Source: a virus (taxonomy: Duplodnaviria; Caudoviricetes). Taken from it: a DNA stretch of 64,000 bases. Under the pieces are notes generated by a model. That model did not search any database. It had not been told where the DNA came from and was given only the letters and a program-made list of their open reading frames with translations. The stretch spans positions 1,175-65,174 of the IMG/VR virus record IMGVR_UViG_3300035698_017721; one strand, given 5' to 3'. This document shows, one piece after another, positions 47,220 to 64,000 of the stretch (positions are counted from its first letter, which is position 1; each line of letters opens with the position of its first letter). Position numbers and translations under genes: made by a program.

Positions 47220-47248
47220 CTACATTTATTAACCCTAAAAACAAAGCC

Positions 47249-47739: not shown

Positions 47740-47758
47740 GCACATCTTCATAATAATG

Positions 47759-47785
47759 AAAAGGGCCTCGAAAGAGGCCCTTTTT
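47759..47785 (+). terminator. Intrinsic terminator
   Basis: AAAAGGGCCTC-GAAA-GAGGCCCTTTTT. Confidence 0.85.
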
Positions 47786-47811
47786 CGTTTAACCAAAACG
47801 ATATATAAGAT

Positions 47812-48306: not shown

Positions 48307-49058
48307 AGCATTTAAAAAAATTTATATCTATGTTTGAATCGGAGAAGATTCTCGATCTGGATGAGTCAATTGCCGATGAACAAATACACAAAGCCATCTT
48401 TATGATTGGTGGTGCAGGGTCCGGTAAGTCGACAGCAGCCAAGAAAATGTTTGAAGGTACTTTGAAGTTCGTTGACTCTGACAAATTCGTACAGTTCCTT
48501 TTGAAGAAGAAAGGTCTATCCCTGGTTTTCGATAAATCAAAGCCTGAAGAATATGCAGCAAAAACTAAATTCCGTCGCCAAGCAAAAGAATTAGAGACTT
48601 CCAAATTTGGACATTTGGTAGATGGCTTACATAGTATCGTATTAGATGGTACTGGTAGAAACCGCGATAAGATCAACCGTCAGTATGATGCGTTACTTGG
48701 ACTAGGCTACGACTGTTACATGATTTATATCAACACGGATGTTGAAGTTGCAGTAGAACGAAATGCCAAGCGAGAACGTGTAGTTCCCGAGGATATTGTA
48801 AGAGCACAGTATCATGATTTACAAGCTAATATTCCGGATTATAAAAAAAAGTTTGGTGCTAATTTCTTTGAATATAAAACTGGTGAGACTGATAAAACGC
48901 TGAATAAAATCTCAAATAAGATATTACAAGCACCTTATGAAAATGAAGCTGGATTTGTATTAAGAGATCTTATGAAGGAAAATCATTTGAAATATCTACA
49001 TGAACTGAATGTGCAACAGTTAGGAACGTTAATGCGGAACATTAGATTAACGGATTAA
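48303..49058 (+). CDS. Zeta-toxin/AAA_33-like P-loop kinase
   Basis: GGAGSGKST, VDSD, VLDGTG, ERNAKRERVVP. Confidence 0.75.
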   Translation: MKHLKKFISMFESEKILDLDESIADEQIHKAIFMIGGAGSGKSTAAKKMFEGTLKFVDSDKFVQFLLKKKGLSLVFDKSKPEEYAAKTKFRRQAKELETSKFGHLVDGLHSIVLDGTGRNRDKINRQYDALLGLGYDCYMIYINTDVEVAVERNAKRERVVPEDIVRAQYHDLQANIPDYKKKFGANFFEYKTGETDKTLNKISNKILQAPYENEAGFVLRDLMKENHLKYLHELNVQQLGTLMRNIRLTD

Positions 49059-49100
49059 CTGCGTATGATTTGGATATATAAAGAGAAATATAATGAAAGA

Positions 49101-49469
49101 AGGATGAAGTCAGTGCTGTTGGTAATGTTAGTATTTTTAAGTACTTCGGTAAACGCTCAAGTAGATCCACCCGATAGTGCAGATGAATTTGGTTGGTTAC
49201 GTTGGGCCGTAATATTACTTTTAGGTTTTGTTGGTACCGGTGGTGCAACATTCTTTGCTTTTGTAAAAGGAGCACATGAAAGTCGAATTAAAGATAAGGA
49301 TGCAGAAATTAAAAGACTTGCAACAAGAGCAACTGAACAGCAACATGCTTTAGAACGTCTACAGACTGATAAAGATGCCTTGAACAAGGATATGCAAGAG
49401 AAAGTTATTCCAGCTCTAACGAGCGCAAGCGACCTTATTAGAACCTTCTTAAATAGCAGTAAGAAATGA
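49101..49469 (+). CDS. Signal peptide + TM + coiled-coil protein
   Basis: MKSVLLVMLVFLSTSVNA, TM helix, heptads. Confidence 0.55.
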   Translation, partial: RMKSVLLVMLVFLSTSVNAQVDPPDSADEFGWLRWAVILLLGFVGTGGATFFAFVKGAHESRIKDKDAEIKRLATRATEQQHALERLQTDKDALNKDMQEKVIPALTSASDLIRTFLNSSKK

Positions 49470-49885
49470 GAGGTCAAACAGAAGATATTAGACATCAGCT
49501 TGATGTCGCTTGTAAAGAACTAACTAGCTGCGTTCATGATTTCAAGATCCAATGTGGTCTTGATGATTGGAAAGAGAAAGTTGTGTCGATCACAGATCAG
49601 TTTACAGAGATCTTTCCAGACGTTATGGCCAAGGTTGCATTTCCAGAGAAAGCAAAAGGTAGTCGTACGATCATTATAAAGGCTAAAGCGGGATCTAAGT
49701 TAGATCCACACAAGATGATTCCTCTTCGCTTTGTTTATGTTGTCCACGGGGACCAGAGAGATGAAAGAGGTGTAATAGTTTTGAATGAGGATGAGGGAAT
49801 GTCTATTCAACCATTTGTTGAATCATCCATGTATTTTAAAGTGGATACGAAGTTGATCATGGAGATTGAAGATGAAACCATATAA
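49466..49885 (+). CDS. Cupin-like protein
   Basis: KAGSKLDPH...FVYVVHG...LNEDEGMSIQP. Confidence 0.5.
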   Translation: MRGQTEDIRHQLDVACKELTSCVHDFKIQCGLDDWKEKVVSITDQFTEIFPDVMAKVAFPEKAKGSRTIIIKAKAGSKLDPHKMIPLRFVYVVHGDQRDERGVIVLNEDEGMSIQPFVESSMYFKVDTKLIMEIEDETI

Positions 49886-49887
49886 TT

Positions 49888-50313
49888 ATGAATGAAGTAC
49901 AACAAAAGGTTCAAGTCGAAGTAGATCACCTTACAGGTTTAATAAGTGAACTACAACAGGTAAATCTGTTTCTAACATTATTAGAAAATCCTGATTGTCC
50001 CATGTTCGTTGCCTATGTTCACCCGGATGGTCATTTTCGTTACGTCAATAAAGTGTTTGCTAATGCCCTTGGATATTCTAAGGAAGAAATTTATAGTAAA
50101 CATTGGGCCGAATTCATGAAGCCTGCGGAATCTGCTCGAGTACGAGCAGATTATCTTGCATCGAGTGATTCTAAGACACCATTTCTAAATTACGATACAA
50201 TGTACCAAACCAAAGACGGTAAGGATCTACCTTTAAGATGGTACACAAGTCCAATGCATAATCACAGTAACGAAGAGAATGTTACGATTTGTTTTTCAAT
50301 GATAATTGATTAA
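49888..50313 (+). CDS. Stand-alone PAS-domain protein
   Basis: DGHFRYVNKVFANALGYSKEEI...TKDGKDLPLRW. Confidence 0.8.
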   Translation: MNEVQQKVQVEVDHLTGLISELQQVNLFLTLLENPDCPMFVAYVHPDGHFRYVNKVFANALGYSKEEIYSKHWAEFMKPAESARVRADYLASSDSKTPFLNYDTMYQTKDGKDLPLRWYTSPMHNHSNEENVTICFSMIID

Positions 50314-50885
50314 AGCTTAATCCAAGCGCAATATTTGCCTTGTCTCTTATAATCTTCTGCCATCCAGATTACGTTTTTTCTGTATAATACAGGATCAAAT
50401 TCTACAACGATACCGTTTTTAGTAGATGAAGTGAACATATCACCTTTCATCAAATTCCAAATAATATTACGACCTGGTGAGTTATTACCGGTCACTGGTA
50501 GGTTCTCAAGAAGATACTTACGAAACTCTGGAGTAGCTTTAACCATATAATATTGGTCAATTGTATAAATGGAAGCATTAAAGAAATAGTAACTATTATC
50601 TGGTCTGAATCGTTTTAAACTTGACTCTGATACAAAATCAGTGCCCTTAACATCAATATAGCATTTCACTCCATCTAAATTGATAAACCAAAGGTCACCA
50701 TCAACAGCATTTGCTTCCACTTGCCGATTCCATTCTTCCGACCATTTTTCAATGTCTTTGTCAACGGTTGGTCCTATACCATATCCCAAGTTCGGTATAA
50801 TTCCTTCTTTTAAAGCTCGTAATACAGACTCTTCCCCAAACAGTCCGAAATAAAATCGTTCGTCAAATGTTGTTAGTGCTTCCAT
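50310..50885 (-). CDS. Putative PD-(D/E)xK nuclease
   Basis: GEE...DGDLW...YIDVKG. Confidence 0.45.
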   Translation of the reverse strand: MEALTTFDERFYFGLFGEESVLRALKEGIIPNLGYGIGPTVDKDIEKWSEEWNRQVEANAVDGDLWFINLDGVKCYIDVKGTDFVSESSLKRFRPDNSYYFFNASIYTIDQYYMVKATPEFRKYLLENLPVTGNNSPGRNIIWNLMKGDMFTSSTKNGIVVEFDPVLYRKNVIWMAEDYKRQGKYCAWIKL

Positions 50886-50949
50886 GTTACCTTATATCAA
50901 CGGAAAAAGGAAATGTTTCCGGATATATAAATAAACGTATCCTATTAAG

Positions 50950-51243
50950 ATGAAATTGAAACGATTTTCAGACTACGGTCAAAGTAGTCAACATACAATA
51001 AAACCAATCGTAGAAGACGCATTGGATGACTTCGAACCTGGTGAAGATGACGAGGATATTGAAGAGGTTAAAGTACAACCTAATGAATGGTCAGAGCGCG
51101 AAATTGAAAATCCTGAACCACAAGATCCATGTTCAGAATATATCACCAACAAGATTGGTCGACTAACCGAAGAAGGATACGATGATGTTCAAGCAAAGAA
51201 TATTGCTGAACGTATGGCCAAGCGAAGAGGCTTCAAAATATAA
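50950..51243 (+). CDS. Small acidic protein with CTS-like N-terminus
   Basis: MKLKRFSDY; GATATATA upstream. Confidence 0.55.
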   Translation: MKLKRFSDYGQSSQHTIKPIVEDALDDFEPGEDDEDIEEVKVQPNEWSEREIENPEPQDPCSEYITNKIGRLTEEGYDDVQAKNIAERMAKRRGFKI

Positions 51244-51253
51244 AGAATACACA

Positions 51254-51511
51254 ATGAAATTAAAACGATTTAACAACCTCAATGAAGGTGAAGGAGGATT
51301 CGGTATAGGTGACGATGGATGGGACGAGGATGACTTGTCAGATCTTATTGAATTAGCAGCTGAAGTTCAAGGCATGCATTATGAACTTACAAATAGTGTG
51401 AGAGATTCTGGTGGCGTTTCTGGAGATACTATAGAGGATCTTGCATCCGATTTAGAAGATTATGCCGAACGTTTTATGTATATTGTAAATGAATTAAGAG
51501 AGCGATCATGA
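51254..51511 (+). CDS. Small acidic protein with CTS-like N-terminus
   Basis: MKLKRFNNLNE. Confidence 0.55.
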   Translation: MKLKRFNNLNEGEGGFGIGDDGWDEDDLSDLIELAAEVQGMHYELTNSVRDSGGVSGDTIEDLASDLEDYAERFMYIVNELRERS

Positions 51512-51864
51512 AACTAAAAAGATTCAAAGACATCAACGAGGAACAAACTTACGTTGAAAAGTATAAGCCGAAACCAATGAAAGACTGGGATGGTAAATCT
51601 GCAGATATTCCGATGGGTAAAGTCGGGAAATTTGAGTTGATTTATCAAATTTACAGTGATGTAATGTGGGGTAACGGTATTCAAGGTTCAATTAGAACGA
51701 TTCCAACTAATTATTATGTTGCTTCTGTAGATGTAGATGGTTCATTAGAATGGGAAGACATGGAAGGTCAGACTAAAGACCTACGTACTAATCATAAAGA
51801 TGAAATCACAGCATTATATGATAAGGTCAAGAAAACACCACAATCTGATTCAGCAGGAATATGA
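51508..51864 (+). CDS. Small protein with CTS-like N-terminus
   Basis: MKLKRFKDINE. Confidence 0.55.
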   Translation: MKLKRFKDINEEQTYVEKYKPKPMKDWDGKSADIPMGKVGKFELIYQIYSDVMWGNGIQGSIRTIPTNYYVASVDVDGSLEWEDMEGQTKDLRTNHKDEITALYDKVKKTPQSDSAGI

Positions 51865-52347
51865 AACACTTACAACTATTCGAAAATTACGGCATGATTG
51901 AAAAACTAGCCACAACGGTCAATCCTTTGCTGTGGGTGATGAAGAAGATCTAAAACCTATTTATAGGAATATAGATACAACTCATGTACGTGTAGTAGGT
52001 GATGATAGTGATGCTATCCTAGCAAAAATTCAACAAGCACTTGAGGCTAAGGAAAACCTTATAATCGGAGATGCTGAAAATTTAGATGACCATCCTGAAG
52101 TAATGCAAACTGTAAAAGCTGCTCTTGATGCCAAAGAAACTTTGATCATTTTGGTAGGCTTGAAATTGAATCAAGCGATTAAAGACAGAGTTTATGTCAT
52201 TGAATAAAACAGAAATAATGAATTTAGGTCAGATAAAAGATGACGTTGCTGCTTTAGCACCTGATGATTATAATGAAGTTATTGATGCTATTATTGGATT
52301 ATTGGAAGAATCCAAAGATTAAATAGTACCAGTATCAAAAGTATTAC

Positions 52348-52387
52348 TATCTTTGTACGGTAGAAACGAAACAAACGTTGATATATA
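52348..52387 (+). promoter_or_regulatory. Tandem promoter elements: Bacteroidota -7 box TATCTTTG (52348) and phage GATATATA box (52380)
   Basis: Exact motifs; the same pair occurs at 61086 and 61112. Confidence 0.65.
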
Positions 52388-52400
52388 GAATAAGAATAAC

Positions 52401-52475
52401 ATGAGAATCGAGATCAACATACATGGAAACCATTGGCATCAGGCAACTGAAAGCTCGTGTAATCCTGTACTCTGA
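52401..52475 (+). CDS. Putative attenuator leader peptide MRIEINIHGNHWHQATESSCNPVL
   Basis: Ile x3 (including ATA), His x3 and Trp clustered in the first 13 codons; lies between promoter and terminator. Confidence 0.7.
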   Translation: MRIEINIHGNHWHQATESSCNPVL

Positions 52476-52493
52476 TTTAGAATTTCAAAATAA

Positions 52494-52535
52494 GAGAAAG
52501 GCCCGAGCATTAAATTGTTCGGGCCTTTCTCGTTT
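52494..52535 (+). terminator. Terminator hairpin of the His/Trp/Ile attenuator
   Basis: GAGAAAGGCCCGAGCA-ttaaat-TGTTCGGGCCTTTCTC-GTTT, ending just before the first tRNA. Confidence 0.75.
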
Positions 52536-52537
52536 AT

Positions 52538-52613
52538 GCACTATAGACCATCTGGCGAGTGGTAATGGCTTCCAAACCCATTAGCTGCGGGTTCAAATCC
52601 TGCATGGTGCCCA
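52538..52613 (+). tRNA. tRNA-Trp (CCA), atypical
   Basis: GCACTAT/ATGGTGC; loop TTCCAAA; C-C mismatch in anticodon stem. Confidence 0.6.
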
Positions 52614-52641
52614 AGGTTGATAGACCTTAAAACTATCAAAC

Positions 52642-52715
52642 GCGTTCGTAGCTCAGTTGATTAGAGCACTGCTCTCCAAAAGCAGGTGTCGCAGGTTTGA
52701 GTCCTGCCGGGCGTG
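52642..52715 (+). tRNA. tRNA-Trp (CCA)
   Basis: CTGCT-CTCCAAA-AGCAG; G73. Confidence 0.85.
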
Positions 52716-52771
52716 CCGCAGCTTTTTCGTACCTGAGTTAGATATATACTTTAAATCTAACCAAGTATGGA

Positions 52772-53650
52772 ATGCCAAGAAAGGAAAAAGAGTACCACGT
52801 CATTTATAAAACGACGTGTAAATTGAACGGGAAGTATTATGTAGGAATGCATTCTACGGATGATTTGAAGGACGGATATTTAGGATCTGGAACATATCTT
52901 AGAAAATCTATACGGAAGCATGGAAAAGAGAATTTCGAATATGAAATTTTAGGGTTCTTTGAAAATAGAAAAGCGTTAATTGATCGTGAGATTGAATTAG
53001 TTAATGAAGATCTGATACAAGATTCAATGTGTATGAATCTTAAACCGGGAGGTAAAGGTGGTTTAGGCGGTATGAAAACAGTTAGAGACAAAAATGGTTT
53101 TTGCTTTAATGTATTCAAAGATGATCCACGTTTAAAAACGGGTGAGGTTGTCAGTGTAATGAAAGGATTGATTATTGTAGTTGATGAATTCGGTAAAAAA
53201 CATGCGGTTAAAAAAACAGATGCACGATATTTATCCGGCGATTTAGTATCTCCATTAAAAGGTAAATTGATGGCAAGAGATAAAAATGGTAAAGTTAGCA
53301 TATTATCAACAGATGATCTTCGTTTAAAAACCGGTGAATTTGTACAGCAAACAACAGGATTTGTGACGGTTAAAGATAAAAAAGGAAAAATATTACATGT
53401 GTCTATTAACGATAAGAGATATTTGTCCGGTGAATTAGTAAGTATATGGAAAGATCGTAAACATTCAGAAGAGACAAAGAAAAAAATAGGATTAAAGAAT
53501 TCAATAGCTCAACAAGGTAATAAGAATTCGCAATTTGGTAAGATTTGGATCTATAATGTTGAGGAACAAAGGTCAAAGAAAATATCATCGGATGAATTAA
53601 GGGAACATTTGGATCTTGATTGGATAAAAGGTAGAAAAATAAACTTTTGA
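52772..53650 (+). CDS. GIY-YIG homing endonuclease within the tRNA array
   Basis: VIYKTTCKLNGKYYVGMHST..YLGSG; D.RL(K)TGE and D.RYLSG repeats. Confidence 0.85.
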   Translation: MPRKEKEYHVIYKTTCKLNGKYYVGMHSTDDLKDGYLGSGTYLRKSIRKHGKENFEYEILGFFENRKALIDREIELVNEDLIQDSMCMNLKPGGKGGLGGMKTVRDKNGFCFNVFKDDPRLKTGEVVSVMKGLIIVVDEFGKKHAVKKTDARYLSGDLVSPLKGKLMARDKNGKVSILSTDDLRLKTGEFVQQTTGFVTVKDKKGKILHVSINDKRYLSGELVSIWKDRKHSEETKKKIGLKNSIAQQGNKNSQFGKIWIYNVEEQRSKKISSDELREHLDLDWIKGRKINF

Positions 53651-53930
53651 TTTCGAAACTTTTTGTGATATGTATGATACATAGTGTATAAACATAACAA
53701 TACACAAAATGGAATTATCAGAAGTAAACAGTAATGCAACAATAGACGTAGAATCTTTAGATGGGTGGGAAGATGGAGAAATATCTATTAAGTCAACAAG
53801 GAAATTGCGAAGTTTTCTTGAAACATATTTAGGAAATAGCCAGTTGAAATTGGATAACATATCTGTCAAATCACTAGGTAGATATGGTAATTTTCAGAGT
53901 TTTTGTGATTGTAGTGATGATTTTTAATAT

Positions 53931-54007
53931 GGTGGTTGTAGTTCAGTTGGTTAGAACGCCTGGTTGTGGTCCAGGAGGTCGTCGGTTCGAGCCCGATTTT
54001 CCACCCA
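53931..54007 (+). tRNA. tRNA-His (GTG), G-1:C73
   Basis: CCTGG-TTGTGGT-CCAGG; two T-T mismatches in acceptor stem. Confidence 0.8.
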
Positions 54008-54125
54008 AAAGACGAACGGTCTAATTCTTAAGTAGCGGCGAGCGAATAAGAATGTGACACGAATTCAGCAAGTCTTACAAACCGTTTCAGATCGTACGAT
54101 TTTCGGAGCGTGAATGGCTATTTAT

Positions 54126-54204
54126 GGTGCATGTAGCTTAGTTGGTCTAAAGCGCTAGTTTGTGGAACTAGAGATCGTGGGTTCGAGACCCATCTTGCAC
54201 ACCA
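54126..54204 (+). tRNA. tRNA-His (GTG), G-1 with A73 and encoded CCA
   Basis: CTAGT-TTGTGGA-ACTAG; GTGCATG/CTTGCAC-A-CCA. Confidence 0.85.
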
Positions 54205-54216
54205 AAATAAAAGGTT

Positions 54217-54690
54217 ATGGAAATTGAAATTGTTGAAGAAGAATCTTACGAAGGTGAAATTGCTCGATTAAGGTTTGAGGAACGCCGAGAGGATTTCCTT
54301 AAGAATGGTAATGATTTTGTAAGGAATGCGTCAATTTATGATGATGCTTTATCATATACATATGGTTTAGCAGAGGAACATTCGGAAACCGTTGGTATTC
54401 CTGTTCTTCGTTTAGCACGCCTAATGGCTTTAGTAGTCATGCGATCTAAACTTGGAATGGATATTGTAGATCTGAATTTACCACCAACCTTTAATTCCAC
54501 AAGGGTTGTTAAGAAAAATACTGGTCGTATTGCTCCAACTGTTGCGATTCTTGACAAGCTGGAGAAGGTTGCATATTTGATCAACACATCAGATGAAGTG
54601 TTTTACTTCAGTAGTGTGAAAGGATATAAAGATTTTAGAAGGGTATATGCTCCCCTCGTTAAAGAAGCATATTGTAAATATAAAGACTGA
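54217..54690 (+). CDS. Hypothetical protein
   Basis: 157-aa ORF between tRNA-His and HisRS. Confidence 0.55.
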   Translation: MEIEIVEEESYEGEIARLRFEERREDFLKNGNDFVRNASIYDDALSYTYGLAEEHSETVGIPVLRLARLMALVVMRSKLGMDIVDLNLPPTFNSTRVVKKNTGRIAPTVAILDKLEKVAYLINTSDEVFYFSSVKGYKDFRRVYAPLVKEAYCKYKD

Positions 54691-54695
54691 AAGTC

Positions 54696-55317
54696 ATGGT
54701 TAGAGGAACAAGAGTACTTATTGGAAACGAGGCTATAAACTACGTTAAGGCGATAGATTCGATACGCTCATGTCTTCATCGCAGCAGGCTATCAAGAAAT
54801 CATTTTACCTAATCTGTGGGAACAGAAGACGTTCACAGATAAGGCTGGTCCAGAGATCCTGGGTCAGATGTATACATTCAATGATAAGAAGGGTCGGGAG
54901 ATCTGTTTATTGCCAGAGGCTACGGCCGTTGTCCAAGAGCTATTCAAAACTCAATGGCAGAATGCAATGAAGAAACCGGTCCGAGTGTTCTACACTCAGA
55001 AATGTTATAGGTACGAAAGGCCACAGAAAGGACGATACAGGGAATTTACCCAGATCGGATTGGAAAGGCTCGGAGGCACTGATGGCAAGGAAGAGGTAAT
55101 AGGACTCCTTAGAAGCTGTCTAAACAGCTTTAATATTGATTATAAGCTCAACGATACGGTCAAACGTGGTCTAGACTATTATGTCGAAGACGGGTTTGAA
55201 GTAGAGGTGGAATCCCTTGGTGCACAAAAGCAGATCGCCGGTGGTGGTCGTTACGATTGTGGAATTGGGTGGGCCATCGGTTTGGATCGGATTTTACTTC
55301 TACTTAATCAAAAATAA
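54696..55317 (+). CDS. hisS: Minimal histidyl-tRNA synthetase catalytic core (about 206 aa) with a +1 frameshift near 54768
   Basis: MVRGTR; GYQEIILPNLW..MYTFNDKKGREICLLPEAT; YRYERPQKGRYREFTQIGLE; RGLDYY; GGGRYD; GWAIGLDRI. Confidence 0.8.
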
Positions 55318-55380
55318 ATCAATATTTCTGGTCTATTAAGCCCAATAGCAAATTGTTTTTAGATATATAAAATAAAAACA

Positions 55381-56076
55381 ATGGAAAGTGGAATATACAA
55401 AATAACAAATTTGCTAAACGGTAAAATTTATATTGGAAGCACAAGTAATTTTGATTATCGAAAATATAGTCATGAAAACAAAGAAAATAACACCGTTATA
55501 TCACGGGCCATTATTAAATATGGTTGGTCTAATTTTTCCTTTGATATATTAGAATATTGTAAACCAGAATTTCTTGCTGAAAGAGAAAATTATTATTTTG
55601 ATTTATTACAACCATTTGTTGAAAATAACGGATATAACATATTAAGAACTGCAACAAGTAATGGGTGGTTGGGTCATAAACACACTGAGGAATCTAAAAA
55701 GAAAATGTCAATTAGTCGTTTAGGCTTAATACCGTGGAACAAAGGTAAGAACGGGTTACAAAAAATGAGTAATGAAGAACGGATAGCAAGATCTAAAAAA
55801 TATAAAGGAACCGGTAATCCCTTCTATGGAAAAACTCATACAGAGGAAACAAAGAAAAAATTAAGTGAACATGCTAAAGTAAGAGATATGTCACATTGTA
55901 ATAAAAAGGTTATACAAATTGACAAAAAAAATCTAAGCGAAATTAAAATTTGGGATAGTATTTCAGATGCCAGTGAAGAAATATTTGGTGATCGAAAACG
56001 TAGCAACATAACAGCAGCATGTAATGGCAGAGTAAAATCAGCCGGTGGATTCTATTGGTCGTACTTGGGCAATTAG
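55381..56076 (+). CDS. GIY-YIG homing endonuclease (NUMOD3/NUMOD1)
   Basis: GIYKITNLLNGKIYIGST, GYNI, NPFYGKTHTEE, SAGGFYW. Confidence 0.88.
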   Translation: MESGIYKITNLLNGKIYIGSTSNFDYRKYSHENKENNTVISRAIIKYGWSNFSFDILEYCKPEFLAERENYYFDLLQPFVENNGYNILRTATSNGWLGHKHTEESKKKMSISRLGLIPWNKGKNGLQKMSNEERIARSKKYKGTGNPFYGKTHTEETKKKLSEHAKVRDMSHCNKKVIQIDKKNLSEIKIWDSISDASEEIFGDRKRSNITAACNGRVKSAGGFYWSYLGN

Positions 56077-56138
56077 TAGATGGGTTAGCACGCAAAGCTT
56101 ATATCTTTGTAAATCAGGTTCAAGTCCTGGACTGCCTA
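56067..56138 (+). tRNA. tRNA-Ile (TAT), overlapping the endonuclease stop codon
   Basis: CAAAG-CTTATAT-CTTTG; T-arm TCAGG-TTCAAGT-CCTGG; weak D-stem. Confidence 0.55.
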
Positions 56139-56144
56139 CAAAAC

Positions 56145-56179
56145 AAAAAAGCGGAGTCCTTAATTGGATTCCGCTTTTT
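56145..56179. terminator. Bidirectional terminator closing the Trp/His/Ile unit
   Basis: AAAAAAGCGGAGTCC-ttaatt-GGATTCCGCTTTTT. Confidence 0.75.
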
Positions 56180-56468
56180 CATTTGATCTATTTTCTCGAT
56201 CAAACTTTACGATCTGTCTTCTAAGAAGTTCCACCTCAAGTGCATCTTTGGTGAGATTTACTACATGTAAACCACCTTGTGAACTGCTACCATAAAATAT
56301 ACCATATACCATGCCATCAGCTCGTTTGGTATCATACAGAACACAATTGTCACCGCCTTGGTCTTCACAACTAACGTTGGCACTATAAGCTCCAACATCT
56401 CGAGGTTCAATTTTTACATCACAACTCATGATTGTGAACATTACGATAATCGCTATAAGTCTTTTCAT
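56160..56468 (-). CDS. Putative lipoprotein
   Basis: MKRLIAIIVMFTIMSC. Confidence 0.55.
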   Translation of the reverse strand: MKRLIAIIVMFTIMSCDVKIEPRDVGAYSANVSCEDQGGDNCVLYDTKRADGMVYGIFYGSSSQGGLHVVNLTKDALEVELLRRQIVKFDRENRSNEKAESN

Positions 56469-56488
56469 CGTACAAAAGTACGAATTTT

Positions 56489-57571
56489 TTAAATCACAAC
56501 GTTATTCAAAGAGAAGCTCACATCTCCTAATACGGCTTCAGATTCATTATCGTTACTTGCTTCAAGATCTGCTGAAGCAATTCCAAACATTGCTATTTCA
56601 TGATTGGGTACTATCTGTGGATCATTCCAGAAAACGCCTGCAACGTGAAAAGATGGGTAAAGATCAATATTGTGGTAATATGTCTTTGGTGAGCCAGTGG
56701 CAATGGTGAATTGACCAAGAACGTTTAGGTCTATTGCGTTGTCATATATCCAAATGTCTACTGGACCACCTACAAATGCACCGGTCCATACTAATTGAAC
56801 CGGTATTCCTGGATTTAAAGCTTCTATATCTTCGCATCTACCAAGGATTGTAGTTACACTCCATCCCTCAGCAACCTCAGTTGGTCCTGGTGGCAAAGTA
56901 TTCTTATCCAGCCAAGGAATTTCTACTATACCAATTTCATCTATTTCAATTTCCCATCCAGTTTCTATCCAGACAAAGCCCCCGAATCCGAATATCCACA
57001 TATCAGGAATTCCATCTGTGTTAGTATCGAAAAAGCCAAGTGCTAGTTCCGAAGGATTATATCCTTCTTGAGTTACAGTCATACAATAATATGGTAATAC
57101 AGTAGCTCTACCACATGCTGTTGAATGTATAGTTAGTGCTTCGACTACTCCTACATCTGACCATTCGGCAGAAATTAAGTCAGGCGATGTAAATGTTATT
57201 ACATTGCCTCCTCCAAAATCTATTATAAGATTCCAAAGTCCATCAATTTTATTAACGGTCATTGGAAACGAAAAATTTTCTAACTGGAATACTGGATTAT
57301 TTTCTAAATCAGTTGTAATATATTCTAATCTGAATAGGAATTCTCCTCCGTCTGCATCGGGAAATGATAACCAGACATCTAAACCAGTTTCAAAATCACA
57401 TCCCGCAAGAGCACTTGCATTTCCACCACCTGGAGCACCTATTAGTTGCTTTGCTGCATACATCCTCATAGCCTCAAAGAGTTCTCTGTCTCGTTCAGCT
57501 TTTAACTTCTGCATTTTCTGAGCTTCGGATAAATGCTTGTTATCTGGTCTGTTTCTAAATTGATCGTTCAT
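56489..57571 (-). CDS. Hypothetical acidic beta-rich protein (possibly a virion protein)
   Basis: 360 aa; GATATATA box immediately upstream. Confidence 0.55.
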   Translation of the reverse strand: MNDQFRNRPDNKHLSEAQKMQKLKAERDRELFEAMRMYAAKQLIGAPGGGNASALAGCDFETGLDVWLSFPDADGGEFLFRLEYITTDLENNPVFQLENFSFPMTVNKIDGLWNLIIDFGGGNVITFTSPDLISAEWSDVGVVEALTIHSTACGRATVLPYYCMTVTQEGYNPSELALGFFDTNTDGIPDMWIFGFGGFVWIETGWEIEIDEIGIVEIPWLDKNTLPPGPTEVAEGWSVTTILGRCEDIEALNPGIPVQLVWTGAFVGGPVDIWIYDNAIDLNVLGQFTIATGSPKTYYHNIDLYPSFHVAGVFWNDPQIVPNHEIAMFGIASADLEASNDNESEAVLGDVSFSLNNVVI

Positions 57572-58349
57572 GCTTTATATATCCCTTACATAAAAAAAAG
57601 GGACCTAAAAAGGTCCCCTCTCAATTTTAAATGTCATAAAGTTTACCGTTCGTAAGAACGACATTCCTCATAATAGGTACTAATACCCATTTGTCAGGGA
57701 AATCTGCCAATCGACAAGATTCCTTTGCCAAGCGTAAGGCTTGGGCTTCAGCTTTCCACATTCTAACTTCATCAGTCGTAATAAATGTGGAGGGAGCGTG
57801 ATAACCATTTACATGGATAACATCTACTCGCCAGTAACGTAGTTTACGTTTCATTTGAACCAAAGGCTCAAATAGGCGGTGATGTATTCTGCGGTAGTAT
57901 TTTTATCATCATCGTATATATCTCAAATGTAAACGTTAAATTCGATTATTATGAAAGAGATTCTCCTATTACTTATTGAGTCCGGTGCTGAGTTCAATAA
58001 AAACAAAACACACAATGGTGATTTGTGGAAGATCGAAAATGTTAGAGACGGTGTTGACATTTATTGTTCTCTCGACGGAAAGTTTAAATACATGTGCCCA
58101 TCTGAAAAACATTGGTCAAGAAAAAAATAATGAAATGACTGTAATAAAATGTAAATCAGGAGTTGTCTTTTCGGCTTGTGTAACCAAGCATATTGATGCA
58201 AGATGGAAACTACAAGAGCTCTATTATAAGGACCAAGGCTGTACTGTTGAAACACAAGAAAGCGTAACATTTGGCGATTGTAATTGTGAACATTGTAATA
58301 CGTTAAATCACGAGTACGAAGAACTTATTGAATCCGTAATAAAAGAATC

Positions 58350-59576
58350 ATGGACGTAAAAAGAAAAATCATAATGGACATCAATAAAAGAAACGACATG
58401 GGCGTAGAAAGAAAAATCATAATGGGTGGAGGTACATTCCAGCCGATAGCAAATCATTTATCCTTATCGGCTCCGGCCTTTGGTAATACAGCCAAACAAC
58501 TTTATGAATGGATGAAGGATATTCCTGGAACAGAATTGGCTCTTACCAAAATGGCCGATCCTAACAGTAATATGGTTACAAATCAAGACGTGGAAAAATA
58601 TGTCTTGTCTCTATTGAAAGATCCGACTGTTAAATTGATCGTGTGTAGCGTTGCCTTCTGTGACTATGAATACACTGATGTTAATTTCCATGGTGACCGA
58701 TTCAAGGAAGTACATCCTACAGAGAAGATCATTGACCGGATTAGAAGAGTAAGACCCGATATTTTTCTAGTTGGATTTAAGACTACTACGAATGCTACAG
58801 TAGAAGAACAGCATTTGATTGGACTTAAAATGATGAAGAGATCTAAATGTAATTTGGTGTTGGCCAATGATACGATCACACGTAAGAACATCATTATCAC
58901 ACCAGAGGAATCTTATTATGGAGAGCATTACAATAATCGTAATCGTACTTTATATGAGTTGCTCAATATGATTGAGATGCGGATGGATGCGACTTATACC
59001 AGGACAGAATTCATAGAATGTGCTAATACATTTAAGATCAATATACTTTCACCCAATATGAGAAGTGTGCTTCACTATCTTGTAAATCATGGTGGATTCA
59101 TTGAGAACAACGGTAATGGATTTACACCTGGACATTTCTGTACACGATTGCAATCTGATGAGTTTGCATCGTCACAAAGGAAGGCAGACCACAATAAAGT
59201 ATTTACTGAAGGTGTTTCACTGGTCAAAGTGGTAGACGACAGATTCCTGGTTACAGGAACTAGAAAGGCTAGTGTCGGTGCTAAGAGTCAGTGGGAGTTG
59301 CTAAAAGCCTACCCAGAGTATCAGAACATCATTCATACACATAGTCCCATTAGATCCAGTTCATCGATACCTAGAGTATCCCAGAAGCCATATCAATGCG
59401 GTAGTCTCGAATGTGGAATGAACACGCTCAATGGAATGAAAGATTTCGGGGATGGTATTCAAGCAGTTTACCTTGATAAGCATGGACCGAACATCATGTT
59501 CAAGAATGATACCCCAGCTTATATGGTAGTAGAATTCATGCGAGACAATTTCCATATCGGTAGGAAAACGACATGA
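58350..59576 (+). CDS. CoaB/DFP-like ligase domain fused to a class II aldolase domain
   Basis: GGGT..PI, AFCDY, FLVGFKTTT, CNLVLAND; TPGHF, IIHTHSP, DKHG. Confidence 0.7.
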   Translation: MDVKRKIIMDINKRNDMGVERKIIMGGGTFQPIANHLSLSAPAFGNTAKQLYEWMKDIPGTELALTKMADPNSNMVTNQDVEKYVLSLLKDPTVKLIVCSVAFCDYEYTDVNFHGDRFKEVHPTEKIIDRIRRVRPDIFLVGFKTTTNATVEEQHLIGLKMMKRSKCNLVLANDTITRKNIIITPEESYYGEHYNNRNRTLYELLNMIEMRMDATYTRTEFIECANTFKINILSPNMRSVLHYLVNHGGFIENNGNGFTPGHFCTRLQSDEFASSQRKADHNKVFTEGVSLVKVVDDRFLVTGTRKASVGAKSQWELLKAYPEYQNIIHTHSPIRSSSSIPRVSQKPYQCGSLECGMNTLNGMKDFGDGIQAVYLDKHGPNIMFKNDTPAYMVVEFMRDNFHIGRKTT

Positions 59577-59670
59577 GAATAATTTCAAGTTTCGGAAATT
59601 AAACGTAACCTTCTGTATCTGTATACGTATAGTGCTTATCTTTACTAACCATAGATAAAATAGATAATTC

Positions 59671-60246
59671 ATGTTTTATACGTTCGACAAAAAGACCCTA
59701 AAATACACAAAGGTTACCAAACCCATTACTGCTTATCTTTTATTCTACACGATCTTTGTAGTGGGAACTGGTTATATGACTGGTCGAGATATATGTCAGG
59801 ATAATCAAGTGATGGTTGAGTCAGAAGCGATTCCAATTGTTCTTAATGAAGAATTAGAATTCTCTGAAGATGCATTATGGGAATTACTGAATGATCTTAA
59901 TGTACGATACCCACATATAGTGATGGCCCAAGCTCGAGTTGAAACTGGTCATTATAAGAGTAAGATCTTCATGGAGAACAACAATTTGTTCGGAATGAAG
60001 TGTGCAGCACAAAGGTGTACAACCCACAAAGGACCTATGAATGGTCATGCAAAATATGATTCATGGCAAGAGTCGGTTATTGACTATGCTCTATACCAAA
60101 CAAGCTACCTAAGGAAAGCTGACACGGAGGATCAATATATCGAAGCATTGGGTGGTAGTTATGCAGAAGATGGAAACTATATGAAATTAGTTTCTGGTCA
60201 AACAGACTCAGTGTTGGAAAAATATGTTATCTTAGCAAGCGATTAA
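59671..60246 (+). CDS. GH73-like glucosaminidase (peptidoglycan hydrolase) with N-terminal TM
   Basis: AQARVETG, NNLFGMK, YDSWQESVIDY, YAED. Confidence 0.8.
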   Translation: MFYTFDKKTLKYTKVTKPITAYLLFYTIFVVGTGYMTGRDICQDNQVMVESEAIPIVLNEELEFSEDALWELLNDLNVRYPHIVMAQARVETGHYKSKIFMENNNLFGMKCAAQRCTTHKGPMNGHAKYDSWQESVIDYALYQTSYLRKADTEDQYIEALGGSYAEDGNYMKLVSGQTDSVLEKYVILASD

Positions 60247-60449
60247 AATGAATGAAGTAAGAGATTTACAGTTTTTAGGTTTTTAAAAAACAAACCGCTG
60301 AAAAAATGATTTCAAGCGGTATTGATGGTACACAATTAACAGAGGACGATGTTGGTCGTACGGTTGCGTTATCTCCTAATTTAGGAATATAAAGATCTCA
60401 TTGAGAAAGGCTTCGTATACTTTTAAATTCTTCATCCTGTTTTTCTTGT

Positions 60450-61014
60450 TTATTGCCAATATTCATCATCATCCTCATCATATCCATAATCAGGATCTCC
60501 TTTTAAATAATTGAATATCACATTACCATCAGAGTCTTCCTCAAAAAAGAATTCTTTACCCTCTCCAATAGCACCTTCTGCCCATTCACCATTTTCACCA
60601 TCGATCAAATGCATATACACAAAGACCCAATCTGGTGAACCCTTGTCTTTCCAACCAAATTCACCATTCCAAGTTTCTTCTTCCTTTACTTCTTGAAACA
60701 AAACTTTCGGGGCCCAGATTCCATAGCCATATTGATTACTCATACCCGACCATTCAGACTGTGCTTCAATATCATAGTTTTCGTGTACTGGTGCATACAT
60801 CTTTTTTCCGTTTACTTTAACCAGTATATAAACATCAGGACCGTATCGAGAAATTATATTATTCTCCTTTAATTTTTCTGATGCCGCCTTTGCATCTTTT
60901 TCATCATTAAATAAAAAATCCGGGTTTAATTTTTTAAACACCTCGAATAACTTCTTGTGAATATTCAGTAGATTCACTTTCGTTGAGCTGAGTAAATGAT
61001 TTAATGTGTTTCAT
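60450..61014 (-). CDS. Acidic protein with CTS-like N-terminus; +1 frameshift near 60945
   Basis: MKHIKSFTQLNES from ATG 61014 joins the 175-aa ORF if one base is removed. Confidence 0.5.
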
Positions 61015-61085
61015 CTATAAATTGGTTAGTTCACTTTATATATTGAAATTTTTCCACCAAAAACAATCAGATCAAAATATATTTA

Positions 61086-61119
61086 TATCTTTGAAACAAT
61101 TTGAAGCAAGAGATATATA
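61086..61119 (+). promoter_or_regulatory. TATCTTTG (-7 box) and GATATATA promoter pair
   Basis: Same arrangement as 52348-52387. Confidence 0.65.
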
Positions 61120-61133
61120 ACACACAAGAAACA

Positions 61134-61202
61134 ATGTTTACAACAATTATCATAGCCCGCATTATTAGACGCCAGAACAGCGTCCCGGGATTGTATTGTT
61201 GA
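61134..61202 (+). CDS. Putative attenuator leader peptide MFTTIIIARIIRRQNSVPGLYC
   Basis: Ile x5 (ATT, ATC, ATA) and Arg x3 (CGC, AGA, CGC) within codons 5-13. Confidence 0.75.
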   Translation: MFTTIIIARIIRRQNSVPGLYC

Positions 61203-61224
61203 AAATTTAGATAACGATTTTTAA

Positions 61225-61264
61225 ACAAAGGCCTCGGGATTAAGTTCTCGGGCCTTTGTCTTTT
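61225..61264 (+). terminator. Terminator hairpin of the Ile/Arg attenuator
   Basis: ACAAAGGCCTCGGGA...TCTCGGGCCTTTGT-CTTTT, ending just before the first tRNA-like gene. Confidence 0.78.
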
Positions 61265-61266
61265 AT

Positions 61267-61343
61267 TGGCGTGTAACCAGGATGCCTGATACGCATTACT
61301 AAGGTAGCGGTTGAAAACATGAGTTCGAATCTCATTTCGCCAA
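61267..61343 (+). tRNA. Atypical tRNA-Ile(GAT)-like RNA lacking a D-arm
   Basis: TGGCG/CGCCA; GATGC-CTGATAC-GCATT; ATGAG-TTCGAAT-CTCAT. Confidence 0.5.
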
Positions 61344-61390
61344 CTTTTCTGAACCTATATCAGATATATAAATAAATAAAATTATATATT

Positions 61391-61954
61391 ATGGCTAAAG
61401 GTTTAAAAATACCAATTTTGGAATTACGAGAATTGGGTCTATCATATAAAGAAATATGCAAAGAATTAAATTGTACGATCGGTGTGGTATCTTATCATTG
61501 TAGTGGTGACGGTAAAATAGTAACAGATAACCAAAAAATATCGGAAATTATACAAGCACAAATAAAGGAATATTGTAAAAATCATACTGATAAAGAAGCA
61601 ATTAAACATTTTGGATTATGTAGAAGCACAATTAAAAAATACAGAGATGATAAAGTAAAAACAATATTAACAAAAGAAGAAAAAATATCAAAAAACAGAA
61701 GTAGCGTAAGCAATAGACGGAAAAAATTGAAACAAATGGCTATAGAATATTTAGGTGGATCGTGTAAAATATGTAACTATAATAAATGCGCAAGTGCTTT
61801 AGAATTCCACCATATAGATCCAACACAAAAAGATTTTAATATTTGTAGAGGTACTATAGCATGGCATAAGATGCAAAAAGAATTAGACAAATGTGTTTTA
61901 TTGTGTTGTAGATGTCATAGAGAATTACATGCAGATTTAATTATGGCCCAGTAG
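61391..61954 (+). CDS. HNH homing endonuclease with N-terminal HTH
   Basis: GGSCKICNYNKC..ALEFHHIDP..CVLLCCRCHRELH. Confidence 0.85.
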   Translation: MAKGLKIPILELRELGLSYKEICKELNCTIGVVSYHCSGDGKIVTDNQKISEIIQAQIKEYCKNHTDKEAIKHFGLCRSTIKKYRDDKVKTILTKEEKISKNRSSVSNRRKKLKQMAIEYLGGSCKICNYNKCASALEFHHIDPTQKDFNICRGTIAWHKMQKELDKCVLLCCRCHRELHADLIMAQ

Positions 61955-62016
61955 CTCAACTGGACAGAGCATCGTCAAGGCGAGGGTTGGGGGTTCGAAT
62001 CCCTCCTGGGTCACCA
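61945..62016 (+). tRNA. tRNA-Arg-like body with the anticodon loop deleted
   Basis: Intact acceptor, D and T arms and CCA; anticodon arm TCGTC-AA-GGCGA. Confidence 0.65.
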
Positions 62017-62019
62017 TTT

Positions 62020-62092
62020 GGTCCCGTAGTTCAAATGGAAGAACGGTGTCTTTCTACGGCATTGGTTGGGGGTTCGATTCCCTCCGGGATTA
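62020..62092 (+). tRNA. tRNA-Arg (TCT)
   Basis: GTGTC-TTTCTAC-GGCAT. Confidence 0.8.
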
Positions 62093-62138
62093 CATAAATG
62101 TTATCTTTGGATAACAAACCGAGATATGAAAATATTTC

Positions 62139-62212
62139 GGGCCTATAGCTCAGTTGGTTAGAGCTCTTGACTCATAATCAAGCGGTCGGGGGTTCAAATC
62201 CCTCTGGGCCCA
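62139..62212 (+). tRNA. tRNA with CAT anticodon, probably Ile2 (lysidine type); Met not excluded
   Basis: CTTGA-CTCATAA-TCAAG; GGGCCTA acceptor resembles bacterial Ile2. Confidence 0.8.
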
Positions 62213-62342
62213 CATAAATTTGGAGTTCGATGCCTGGGTGGGCATGTGGCGATCTATAGTAACTCGAGCTATGTATAGATAATCGCGGTATAACTAAGAG
62301 CCACAGTATAACCGCGCCACCCAGGGATCGATCATCAATAAT

Positions 62343-62414
62343 GGTTTCATAGTTCAATGGATAGAACGTTGGTTTCCTAAACTGAAAATCAGGGTTCGAA
62401 TCCCTGTGAGACCA
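62343..62414 (+). tRNA. tRNA-Arg (CCT)
   Basis: TTGGT-TTCCTAA-ACTGA. Confidence 0.8.
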
Positions 62415-62634
62415 CTTAGAATAAGTCGGCAGATTTATCTGTACCTCCCGGTGCGGTAGACAAGCCATCTGATCTAAAAATGTGTACGAGTAAGCTCCGT
62501 ATACAGGCTTAGTGAAGGACCGATTCGGAATGATATGATGAACGTTGGTAGACGTGAAGTATTATTGCAGCAGTCGGGTTAAGGTGCCAGACGGAATTTA
62601 CAGCCGTAGATTGTCACGATTTATTCTTTTTATT

Positions 62635-62708
62635 GGCCTTGTAGCTCAACTGGATAGAGCACCTGATTACGGATCAGGAGGTTCGGGGTTCGAATCCCTG
62701 CTAGGTCA
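62635..62708 (+). tRNA. tRNA-Arg (ACG)
   Basis: CCTGA-TTACGGA-TCAGG. Confidence 0.9.
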
Positions 62709-62722
62709 CTTTGATGATACAT

Positions 62723-62795
62723 GGCTCCGTAGCTCAATGGATAGAGCACCCGGTTTCGGCCCGGACGGTTGTGAGTTCGAATCCCACCGGGGTCA
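62723..62795 (+). tRNA. tRNA-Arg (TCG)
   Basis: CCCGG-TTTCGGC-CCGGA. Confidence 0.8.
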
Positions 62796-62834
62796 CTTTC
62801 GGTCTTCGGATTTTTTATTTCCGAAGACCGATAT

Positions 62835-62884
62835 AGTGCATGAAAATATGTACACATTGCAGGTTCGAATCCTGCTTGCTCAAC
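62835..62884 (+). pseudogene. 3' half of a long-variable-arm tRNA
   Basis: GTGCAT/ATGTAC arm, GCAGG-TTCGAAT-CCTGC; no 5' half; preceded by a 12-bp perfect hairpin at 62799-62831. Confidence 0.45.
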
Positions 62885-63673
62885 AATTTTTATATCTTTA
62901 ACTTAACTAAAATAGGAAAGATGAAAACAACAATGCCAGATGAAGTAATGAGTGAATTATCTGATCGAATAGAAAAGATTCTTGTAAAGAAAGGTATCGT
63001 ATATAATAGAGTTGATGATACCAAATTTCTGGTAAAACAATCCGATTCTACTGCTTTATATACTGCTCAAATGGAAGCAAATGTTGAATTAGTGACTGAA
63101 GGTATCATCACACCTGAAATGATAGCTACTGAAATGAAGCAATTTTAATGATTATCCTTAATGAGGGAGACCGGGTCCGTTACACCGGTGAATATGAATC
63201 TTGCCATAATGTTACGTACATAATTAAAAAGGTCTTTACAATTATGGGCGTATGGTATGATTTAGAGCTTGAGGGTGAATGGATACCAGGACTAGCATAC
63301 AAAGAAATCTTTTCTGCTCGAGGTGAAGATGTTCTAGCAATATTAAAGAAGGCTTCCTGATCAAAGGGGATGGCGACACGAACGAGATCTTAAAAATTCT
63401 AACCCTTTGTAAAGCCGGATTATGTATTCATATCACAACAGAATTAAACAACGTATCGATAATAACGAACTTGAAAGCTACGAATATGTTGAAGCATATA
63501 AAGCAATCAGTCCATGCTTATTACTATACTTTAATACAGAACCTAAAATACGACCAATTCGAGAACATCGATTTGAACAGTATGAAAAACTATTTTCAGA
63601 ATTAGTGAAATAAATTTCCATATGTCAATATTAGTGCTTATCTTTACAACGTAATCAAAACTAGATACGTCCC

Positions 63674-64000
63674 ATGAGAACAGCATTCAATTCAGAAAGT
63701 ACAGGTCAGACAATTTATTACAGAGATGGCCAAGCATATTTATTCTTATACAATCAAAGCGGTGAGGATGTTCTTCCTGCCGATCTTAGTCCTGCAGTAA
63801 ACTTCGTGATCAAGTTAGATCAAAATGAAGTAGTTAAAAATCTCCTTGCAGGTGAACATGAAGATTATCAAGAAGATCAAATGTTTGAAGAGGCAATCTA
63901 CGAAGCGGTCCTTGATCGTTATGGATTCTCTTACAATGTAACGACCGACCGAGACAATGTTCTTGGAGATCCAATGGAATGTCTAGCATTTCTTGTTGAA
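63674..64000 (+). CDS. Hypothetical protein, truncated by the window end
   Basis: ATG 63674 MRTAFNSESTGQTIYYRDG..., after a TATCTTTA box. Confidence 0.5.
   Translation, partial: MRTAFNSESTGQTIYYRDGQAYLFLYNQSGEDVLPADLSPAVNFVIKLDQNEVVKNLLAGEHEDYQEDQMFEEAIYEAVLDRYGFSYNVTTDRDNVLGDPMECLAFLVE

Follow-up and report, generated by a model that had tools for sequence, protein, structure and literature searches.

How does a phage control the expression of its own transfer RNA (tRNA) genes? These genes are usually discussed as constitutive patches for codon usage or as replacements for tRNAs cut by defence systems, and to our knowledge the control of their expression is largely unknown. The question is raised by two tRNA units within a stretch of 64,000 nt of viral DNA (positions 1175-65174 of the 65-kb IMG/VR record IMGVR_UViG_3300035698_017721), which we call the window. 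In both units, tRNA sequence is preceded by a promoter-like box, a short open reading frame (ORF) and a strong intrinsic terminator. We argue that both are probably ribosome-mediated (leader-peptide) transcription attenuators placed ahead of phage tRNA genes. Our confidence in such a class of attenuators across phages is higher than our confidence in these two particular members.

A common layout ahead of two tRNA arrays

An earlier note on this DNA had claimed that the two units share one 5' architecture, with two promoter boxes, a leader ORF and a terminator ending within a few bases of the first tRNA. The features concerned are these.

Unit 1
52348-52355, + strand: TATCTTTG box, common to unit 2
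52380-52387, + strand: GATATATA promoter-like box, 14 nt before the leader ATG
52401-52475, + strand: leader ORF 1, 24 codons, MRIEINIHGNHWHQATESSCNPVL, with a control cluster ATA, CAT, CAT, TGG, CAT at codons 7-13
52402-52487, + strand: imperfect long hairpin around leader 1 (segments 1:2), whose 3' arm, 52453-52472, is the predicted antiterminator partner of the terminator 5' arm
52494-52537, + strand: intrinsic terminator, with a 16-bp GC-rich stem (52494-52531, about -30 kcal/mol) and the tail GTTTAT
52538-52717, + strand: two tRNA-Trp(CCA) genes, the sole tRNAs that leader 1 would gate directly

Unit 2
61086-61093, + strand: TATCTTTG box
61112-61119, + strand: GATATATA promoter-like box, 14 nt before the leader ATG; the upstream neighbour gene is divergent, on the minus strand
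61134-61202, + strand: leader ORF 2, 22 codons, MFTTIIIARIIRRQNSVPGLYC, with the cluster ATT ATC ATA GCC CGC ATT ATT AGA CGC at codons 5-13
61136-61206, + strand: hairpin around leader 2 (segments 1:2), whose 3' arm, 61182-61199, is predicted to pair instead with the 5' arm of the terminator
61225-61267, + strand: intrinsic terminator, stem 61225-61259 (about -21 kcal/mol), then CTTTTATT
61268-61343, + strand: degenerate tRNA-like remnant with a perfect T-arm and a mismatched acceptor stem

Most of the claimed architecture stands. Both units have the GATATATA box, an ATG ORF of 24 or 22 codons, a strong terminator with a U-rich tail whose stem lies 18-22 nt past the leader stop codon, and tRNA sequence 6-8 nt further on. 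What does not stand is the second box: TATCTTTG is not enriched in the window (4 found, 4.8 expected), nor is the looser TANNTTTG (52 against 72.8), and apart from its occurrence in both units it has no statistical support. The claimed proximity of terminator and tRNA is exact in unit 1, where tRNA-Trp starts at 52538, 6 nt past the terminator. In unit 2, tRNA-like sequence starts at about 61268, some 8 nt past the terminator, but this first "tRNA" is the degenerate remnant. The two units have no other sequence in common than the boxes and the terminator type, and we reject the idea that they are sequence paralogues. We also reject the terminators as mere ends of upstream genes: the neighbour of unit 2 is divergent, and in unit 1 a promoter box lies in between.

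The GATATATA box itself looks like a real signal of the phage. It occurs 17 times in the window where 3.5 copies are expected, a count reached by none of 100 shuffles; every copy (17/17) is oriented toward a close-by ATG, and 13 of the 17 have an ORF of 60 aa or more that starts no further than 45 nt downstream (13.6% for random positions). The 14 nt between box and leader ATG fall inside the range of real genes.

Seven of the 17 sites (4195, 9747, 38009, 41028, 47800, 57583 and 57922) show a shorter spacing: of the ORFs that begin no more than 45 nt away, the longest has its ATG only 2-4 nt past the box. The ORFs at 41028 and 57922 have just 30 and 14 aa. Such spacing suggests that leaderless or near-leaderless mRNAs could arise from these promoters.

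Predicted alternative folding of the leader transcripts

At the level of sequence, a 1:2 hairpin, a 2:3 antiterminator and a 3:4 terminator are all present in both units. To follow their formation along the leader, we masked a ribosome footprint (from -15 to +12 around the A site) at each codon and computed the fold of the nascent RNA as far as the loop of the terminator; E. coli thrL went through the same script as a positive control. In unit 1, with the A site at codons 4-14, pairing with 52453-52472 takes up 12 of the 16 nt of the terminator 5' arm (-13.7 kcal/mol or lower); in unit 2, with the A site at codons 2-13, 12-13 of 15 nt pair with 61182-61199 at about -17.5 kcal/mol. In both, the pairing is gone once the ribosome is beyond codon 14-15, and a ribosome at the stop codon masks segment 2. 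The control clusters (H-G-N-H-W-H for unit 1, I-I-I-A-R-I-I-R-R for unit 2) end exactly at this switch point, and the masked-fold profile of thrL is the same as that of both units. Computational folding of the alternative structures, suggested in the earlier note as a check, hence upholds its comparison with ribosome-stalling attenuators: the antiterminator forms just for stalls up to codon 14-15, and every part of that layout recognizable in sequence is found in both units. Whole units fold far better than shuffles (z=-7.9 in unit 1, -4.2 in unit 2). For the 2:3 duplex alone, the comparison with shuffles gives p=0.024 in unit 1 and p=0.037 in unit 2, or 0.073 each with a wider upstream region. 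One DNA contig is identical over 52053-52586, and thus offers no variation for a covariation test.

Leader codons and tRNAs within the window

The arrays behind the leaders, of which the tRNA-Trp pair and the remnant were given above, continue as follows.

52741-53650, + strand: GATATATA box (52741) and GIY-YIG/NUMOD3 homing-endonuclease gene (52772-53650), inserted into array 1
53932-54204, + strand: two tRNA-His(GTG) genes
55362-56076, + strand: GATATATA box (55362) and second GIY-YIG/NUMOD3 endonuclease gene (55381-56076)
56067-56139, + strand: tRNA-Ile(TAT), which reads ATA; array 1 ends behind it with the terminator 56146-56179
61363-61954, + strand: GATATATA box (61363), then an endonuclease-like gene of the HTH/NUMOD1 type (61391-61954), an insertion that separates leader 2 from the Arg tRNAs
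61945-62796, + strand: array 2, with a tRNA-like gene (61945-62013), then Arg(TCT), tRNA(CAT), Arg(CCT), Arg(ACG) and Arg(TCG)

The array anticodons can read 5 of the 23 codons of leader 1 (ATA, three CAT and TGG) and 4 of the 21 of leader 2 (two CGC, AGA and ATA), the ATA of leader 2 counting as readable solely if the CAU tRNA is Ile2. Swapping leaders and arrays lowers these numbers to 2 and 1. In leader 2, 8 of 21 residues are Ile or Arg, ahead of an array with four Arg tRNAs. The codon match inside the window alone is weakly above chance, and on this evidence alone the attenuator reading would have to be called doubtful. It is the relatives that decide the matter.

The second array has some peculiarities of its own. 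The tRNA-like gene 61945-62013 lacks a normal anticodon arm, and the stop codon of the endonuclease-like gene 61391-61954 falls inside it. Two spacers between the Arg tRNAs, 62216-62340 (125 nt) and 62420-62630 (210 nt), have no tRNA or Rfam match. The first contains a 12-codon ORF (62244-62282) in which 3 of 11 residues are Arg (p=0.025), with no terminator behind it.

Leaders ahead of tRNA arrays in related phages

Related loci were found through an HD-domain protein (46073-46768, phrog_14850) encoded beside the first tRNA array of the window, which has 1621 homologues. An alignment of this query with 19 of 120 listed homologues led to 55 loci on viral contigs, mostly phages of 150-510 kb with tRNA arrays. 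We scanned all ATG ORFs of 12-45 aa lying at most 300 nt upstream of a tRNA, counting the tRNAs up to 1.5 kb downstream, and scored them by a binomial test on the residues whose amino acid is carried by these tRNAs, with the pool of short ORFs of the same locus as background. The first scan covered 348 ORFs; the second added 237 from further tRNA regions of five genomes. Of these five, G001 and G002 were picked for their locus hits, and G003-G005 as large, tRNA-rich relatives with no hit below p=0.01 in the first scan. The scans excluded L001 and L002, which duplicate the window. As near-identical loci, L004, L033, L008, L015, L016, L017, L041 and L052 were dropped from the first scan and from the permutation, and L039 from the permutation as well. 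In the permutation set, overlapping gaps were removed by identity of their last 120 nt. Matched leaders in these relatives include the following.

L025, 12295-12369: MKNINTSKSSSSRSSRMSEIRLYS, before Arg(ACG), Ser(TGA), probable Ser(GCT) and Ser(GGA); p=8e-7
L025, 11182-11277: ..RTHKHFSKSSKWFSLHGF.., before Phe, His, Trp and Lys; p=1.4e-4
L025, 11801-11845: MKYKKMKTKMKYKR, before three Lys; p=8e-4
L038, 18577-18666: MNQTPTTRTTTTQRIT.. / ..TPTTRTTTTQRIT.., before two Ile, three Thr and three Gln; p=3.6e-4
L069: MRREHREFDIIERPEGHRD, before Phe, Asp, Ile, Glu, Glu, Arg and His; 16 of 18 residues matched
L064: MKKSYSYKTYKK.., before Tyr and five Lys
L058: ..QYQQQQQ.., before two Gln
L058: ..ISIAIIAGGAG.., before Ile, Gly and Ala
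L058: ..YYYEE.., before Glu and Tyr
L061 and L065: ..PQ(P/H)QHQPQNL.., before Pro, His and Gln, in two different phages

The type-II tRNA read as Ser(GCT) behind the first of these leaders has an Rfam match only. Each of the five genomes has at least one matched leader, and the match is much clearer there than in the window.

Does this exceed what short ORFs would show by chance? The earlier note had held that the clustered leader codons are those read by the tRNAs downstream, and had proposed a comparison with shuffled pairings. Over 209 gaps (523 ORFs, 49 loci), 12, 7 and 4 gaps had a best p below 1e-2, 1e-3 and 1e-4 respectively, against means of 4.1, 0.9 and 0.3 when tRNA sets were permuted, and the observed values were reached by none of 500 permutations. 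Of the 25 gaps with a strong terminator at most 140 nt from the tRNA, 13 contained a matched ORF (p<0.05), against 13 of the 184 gaps that lack such a terminator (Fisher test, 1.6e-7), and the tRNA of the relatives typically starts 6-12 nt past the terminator, as in the window. The comparison thus came out in favour of an association, but the match is one of amino acids and not strictly one of codons.

The folding evidence extends to the relatives. Antiterminator duplexes were better than shuffles (p<0.05) in 8 of 15 leaders including thrL, with a combined value of 3e-12. For 17 leaders with a terminator, both window units included, the offset of the switch point from the last matched codon ranged from -2 to +4 codons, the median being 0. 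Matched residues in these 17 leaders fell inside rather than outside the permissive window of stall positions in 134 and 35 cases, against 134 and 136 for unmatched residues (Fisher test, 3e-10).

These results bear on two simpler explanations. The leaders might be chance, untranslated ORFs in structured 5' regions. The hairpin and the U-tract behind it would then form an ordinary terminator, or serve in processing or stabilization beside an RNase P site. Statistics confined to the window are marginal, the two GC-rich CGC codons of leader 2 sit in stems, and many tRNAs of jumbo phages follow hairpins with no matched ORF: 85 candidate hairpins were listed, and 12 of the 25 strong terminators are unmatched. 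Yet chance would account neither for the association that no permutation reproduced, nor for the concentration of matched ORFs at terminators, nor for matched clusters ending at the antiterminator switch point in 17 leaders as they do in thrL; the equal distance between GATATATA and ATG in both units, within the range of real genes, also speaks against it. We find this explanation improbable. Alternatively, the units might be independent small genes, with their own promoter and terminator, encoding a small RNA or a peptide of 22-24 aa that acts in trans and lies near tRNAs by position only. A strong terminator some 140 nt behind a promoter is what a small-RNA gene usually looks like, the folding of both transcripts is far better than that of shuffles, as seen above, and the small stable RNAs of the T4 tRNA region are a precedent. 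But this would leave unexplained why the composition of the peptide tracks the downstream tRNA set across phages, and why the gap of 6-12 nt between terminator and tRNA leaves no space for another promoter; and the two units share no sequence beyond boxes and terminator type. We regard this second explanation as very unlikely, and the attenuator reading as the better account of the leaders.

One relative bears on the composition of leader 2. In G004, an array runs Arg(TCT), Arg(TCT), Arg(CCT), Arg(ACG), Arg(TCG), Ile, Ile, Ile, with the same order of Arg tRNAs as array 2 of the window. An ancestral array of Arg and Ile tRNAs would explain the Ile/Arg leader of unit 2.

Two further loci, L060 (minus strand, 4914-5036) and L063 (minus strand, 1283-1399), carry homologous leaders of 38-40 codons in two phages, MSNINRSNWCGNITTSGIITLSFRGSNN.. 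and MSNISRINWCGSTITGGISTLNFRGSN.., nearly all of whose residues are from amino acids of the long arrays behind them (Trp, Phe, Thr, Arg, Ile, Ser, Gly and Asn). These arrays reach beyond the 1.5-kb limit of the scan, so the match statistic understates the two leaders. In L025 (G001), just upstream of the Ser/Arg leader, a tRNA-shaped gene (12146-12275) has an interruption of about 60 nt after the anticodon region, and Rfam matches its 3' part only (12218-12271); it may be an intron-containing or disrupted tRNA. The HD-domain protein (with P0044, P0052, P0070, P0072 and P0113) is conserved beside tRNA arrays in many jumbo phages, and in some relatives it is fused to the peptidyl-tRNA hydrolase domain PF01981.

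A model for the control of the tRNA genes

How would such a device work? Transcription would start from the GATATATA-type phage promoter and a ribosome would translate the leader of 22-24 codons. If it were slowed at the central cluster (His, Trp and possibly the Ile codon ATA in unit 1, Arg and Ile in unit 2), it would cover segment 1 and free segment 2, which would pair with the 5' arm of the terminator to form the antiterminator, and RNA polymerase could then read on into the tRNA genes 6-8 nt past the terminator. With fast decoding, the ribosome would reach the stop codon and cover segment 2, the terminator would form and only a leader RNA of about 140 nt would be made. If there were no translation, the 1:2 hairpin would form and transcription would likewise be expected to terminate. 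The predicted outcome is negative feedback on the supply of the tRNAs encoded downstream. The shortage sensed might stem from starvation or from anticodon nucleases.

In the window, the units may be partly bypassed. Endonuclease genes with their own GATATATA boxes intervene between leaders and distal tRNAs, so direct gating would be limited to the two tRNA-Trp genes in unit 1 and to the decayed tRNA remnant in unit 2. The insertions are mobile and probably recent, given that the DNA contig of a relative joins 55287 to 56066 and lacks the second GIY-YIG gene (55381-56076). One might then ask if the units are relics, attenuators by class that regulate nothing important in the present phage. Boxes at 52741, 55362 and 61363 stand directly ahead of the GIY-YIG and HTH endonuclease genes, such genes evidently come and go, the remnant 61268-61343 is not called a tRNA, and the match of leader and tRNAs is weaker in the window than in relatives. 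All this would fit a relic, but the leader ORFs, terminators and alternative pairings are intact in both units, unit 1 lies directly ahead of two good tRNA-Trp genes, and read-through from a leader would still add to the output of internal promoters. We therefore think it unlikely that the units have become idle, and continue to read them as attenuators that may still act in this phage.

Directly 3' of the two tRNA-His genes, 54693-55317 encodes a catalytic core like that of histidyl-tRNA synthetase (Pfam tRNA-synt_His, 6.8e-13) with no anticodon-binding domain, in two frames with one apparent frameshift near 54760-54790.

Several observations weigh against the attenuator reading. Random short ORFs of the window match the arrays as well as leader 1 in 4.0% and as well as leader 2 in 14.4% of 395 cases, the arrays offer no cognate tRNA for most Ile codons of the two leaders (ATC, ATT), and unit 1 reaches only p=0.04 in the common amino-acid-match test. 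The antiterminator pairing of the window units beats shuffles marginally (p 0.02-0.07). The remnant 61268-61343 gives no tRNA call by ARAGORN, default or relaxed, or by Rfam at E<=5; transcription of the His, Ile and Arg tRNAs could start from the boxes at 52741, 55362 and 61363 with no part played by the leaders; and no leader is present ahead of the third array of the window (46.8-47.2 kb). Across the class, codon-level specificity beyond the amino acid is not apparent (140 of 159 matched codons readable, 133.7 expected), the permutation test takes gaps as independent although some phages are related, and leaders at p<1e-3 occur in only 2 of 45 non-redundant loci anchored on the HD-domain gene. 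Together with the 12 unmatched terminators among 25, this last figure indicates a device that is common but not universal. Finally, no sequence homology to the Rfam leader families was found, the scores being below gathering thresholds (27.7 against 55 bits for Thr_leader, RF00506, and 28 against 49 bits for His_leader, RF00514). In the window the best score is that of Thr_leader, at 52470-52533, and the sub-threshold matches, to Thr_leader, MicC and ar35, are driven by the terminators only.

One might speculate further that the tRNA arrays of giant phages are demand-driven, multivalent feedback circuits, each block being transcribed only when a ribosome on a leader composed of that block's amino acids finds one of its tRNAs missing. 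The trigger during infection would be the loss of host tRNAs, to host anticodon nucleases or to phage-induced host shut-off, in which case the leaders would be sensors of damage serving counter-defence and not nutritional sensors. We offer this as a tentative idea, more doubtful than the attenuator reading itself. If attenuation of this kind is real, phages would gauge decoding capacity codon by codon and respond with the matching tRNAs, closing the shortest possible feedback loop on the translation apparatus. Leaders would then predict, from sequence only, which tRNAs are limiting for a phage, and would provide synthetic biology with compact, portable sensors of the supply of individual tRNAs.

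Relation to known systems

Leader-peptide attenuators of amino-acid operons include trpL, hisL, leuL, pheL and the multivalent leader of ilvGMEDA. The phage units resemble these attenuators, of which we tested thrL, in having a short ORF with a cluster of control codons and the 1:2, 2:3 and 3:4 structures, and the last control codon lies at the antiterminator switch point in thrL as in the phage leaders, with the same profile in one script. The leaders of thr and ilv are also multivalent, as are those of phages. The difference lies in what is controlled: biosynthetic enzymes in the operons, and, in the phage units, tRNA genes that are phage-borne and start 6-12 nt past the terminator. The type of control is thus known for amino-acid genes, and tRNA genes would be a new target. 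Full-text searches of the openly accessible literature returned no description of leader-peptide control of tRNA genes, phage or cellular, in keeping with the remark, made when the locus was first noticed, that no such description was known for phage tRNA arrays.

Closer in its target is attenuation of the pheST type, in which an aminoacyl-tRNA synthetase operon is controlled by a leader peptide that responds to how far one tRNA species is charged. As in the phage units, the controlled gene belongs to the translation apparatus and is not a biosynthetic enzyme; but the output of pheST is a synthetase protein encoded in a cellular genome, whereas the output of the phage units would be the tRNA itself, a direct feedback on the molecule sensed. 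T-box riboswitches, like the phage units, couple the state of a specific tRNA to the choice between terminator and antiterminator ahead of translation-related genes, but they bind uncharged tRNA directly and need neither ribosome nor ORF. We considered a T-box in the window and rejected it, as the window yields no T-box match at Rfam gathering scores and the part 52200-63000 yields none at E<=5.

The tRNA region of T4 is, like the arrays of the window, a cluster interspersed with GIY-YIG homing-endonuclease genes. We know of no leader-peptide attenuator in that region, and the same literature searches found none. Its segB homing endonuclease is mentioned through a reference within PMC8421152. 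Induction of tRNAs on demand has a cellular parallel in the long tRNA operon of Anabaena, an accessory array, usually silent, that responds to translational stress (PMC8421152). It is switched on when translation is impaired, as the phage units would be, but its control differs, being exerted by the protein repressor TrcR (PMC10272220). The terms 'leader peptide', 'attenuat' and 'terminator' have 0 occurrences in PMC8421152, a paper of 2021.

The source phage and the other genes of the window

The virus record has a CheckV completeness of 18%, so the window is a fragment of a phage of several hundred kb. Its gene content includes a topoisomerase II of the T4 type and a family-B DNA polymerase, both split, as well as PARP-like and NUDIX proteins and homing endonucleases of the GIY-YIG and HTH/NUMOD types. 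Judged by topoisomerase II, the closest cultured phages are T4-like ones, with an identity of about 30%. No near relative is apparent: megablast of 44000-64000 against phage records gave no match, searches with the 408-aa protein and with topoisomerase subunit A gave no relative loci, and a search for homologous proteins of the ORF 54217-54690 gave none. The tRNA genes, 14 by ARAGORN and 16 matches by Rfam, form three groups, at 46.9-47.2 kb, 52.5-56.1 kb and 61.9-62.8 kb; at Rfam gathering scores, nothing but tRNA passes in the window.

The first group contains two odd members. In the tRNA-like gene 46901-46979, a 6-bp stem (GATTAC/GTAATC) with a TTCG cap replaces the anticodon loop; ARAGORN reports it as '???' with a 2-base anticodon, and its Rfam tRNA score is 52 bits. 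The next gene, 46984-47058, is called Arg(TCG), but its loop could alternatively close as a C(UUCG)G tetraloop. Both may be non-decoding tRNA mimics. They are followed, at 47066-47220, by a tandem pair of tRNA genes with the amber-suppressor anticodon CTA. Recoding of TAG is not supported despite these two tRNA(CUA) genes: TAG is the stop codon of 8 of the 79 ORFs of at least 100 aa in the window, and reading TAG as sense extends ORFs less than reading TGA or TAA as sense. Genes of the tRNA(CUA) type are common in the related loci too (L021, L022, L023, L038, L046, L047, L050 and L053).

Further upstream, the region pair 39165-40493 (minus strand) and 33318-35781 includes a protein with a PARP catalytic domain (Pfam, 7e-25). 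In the same pair, the gene of the family-B DNA polymerase is apparently split beside a DUF7487 ORF on the opposite strand.

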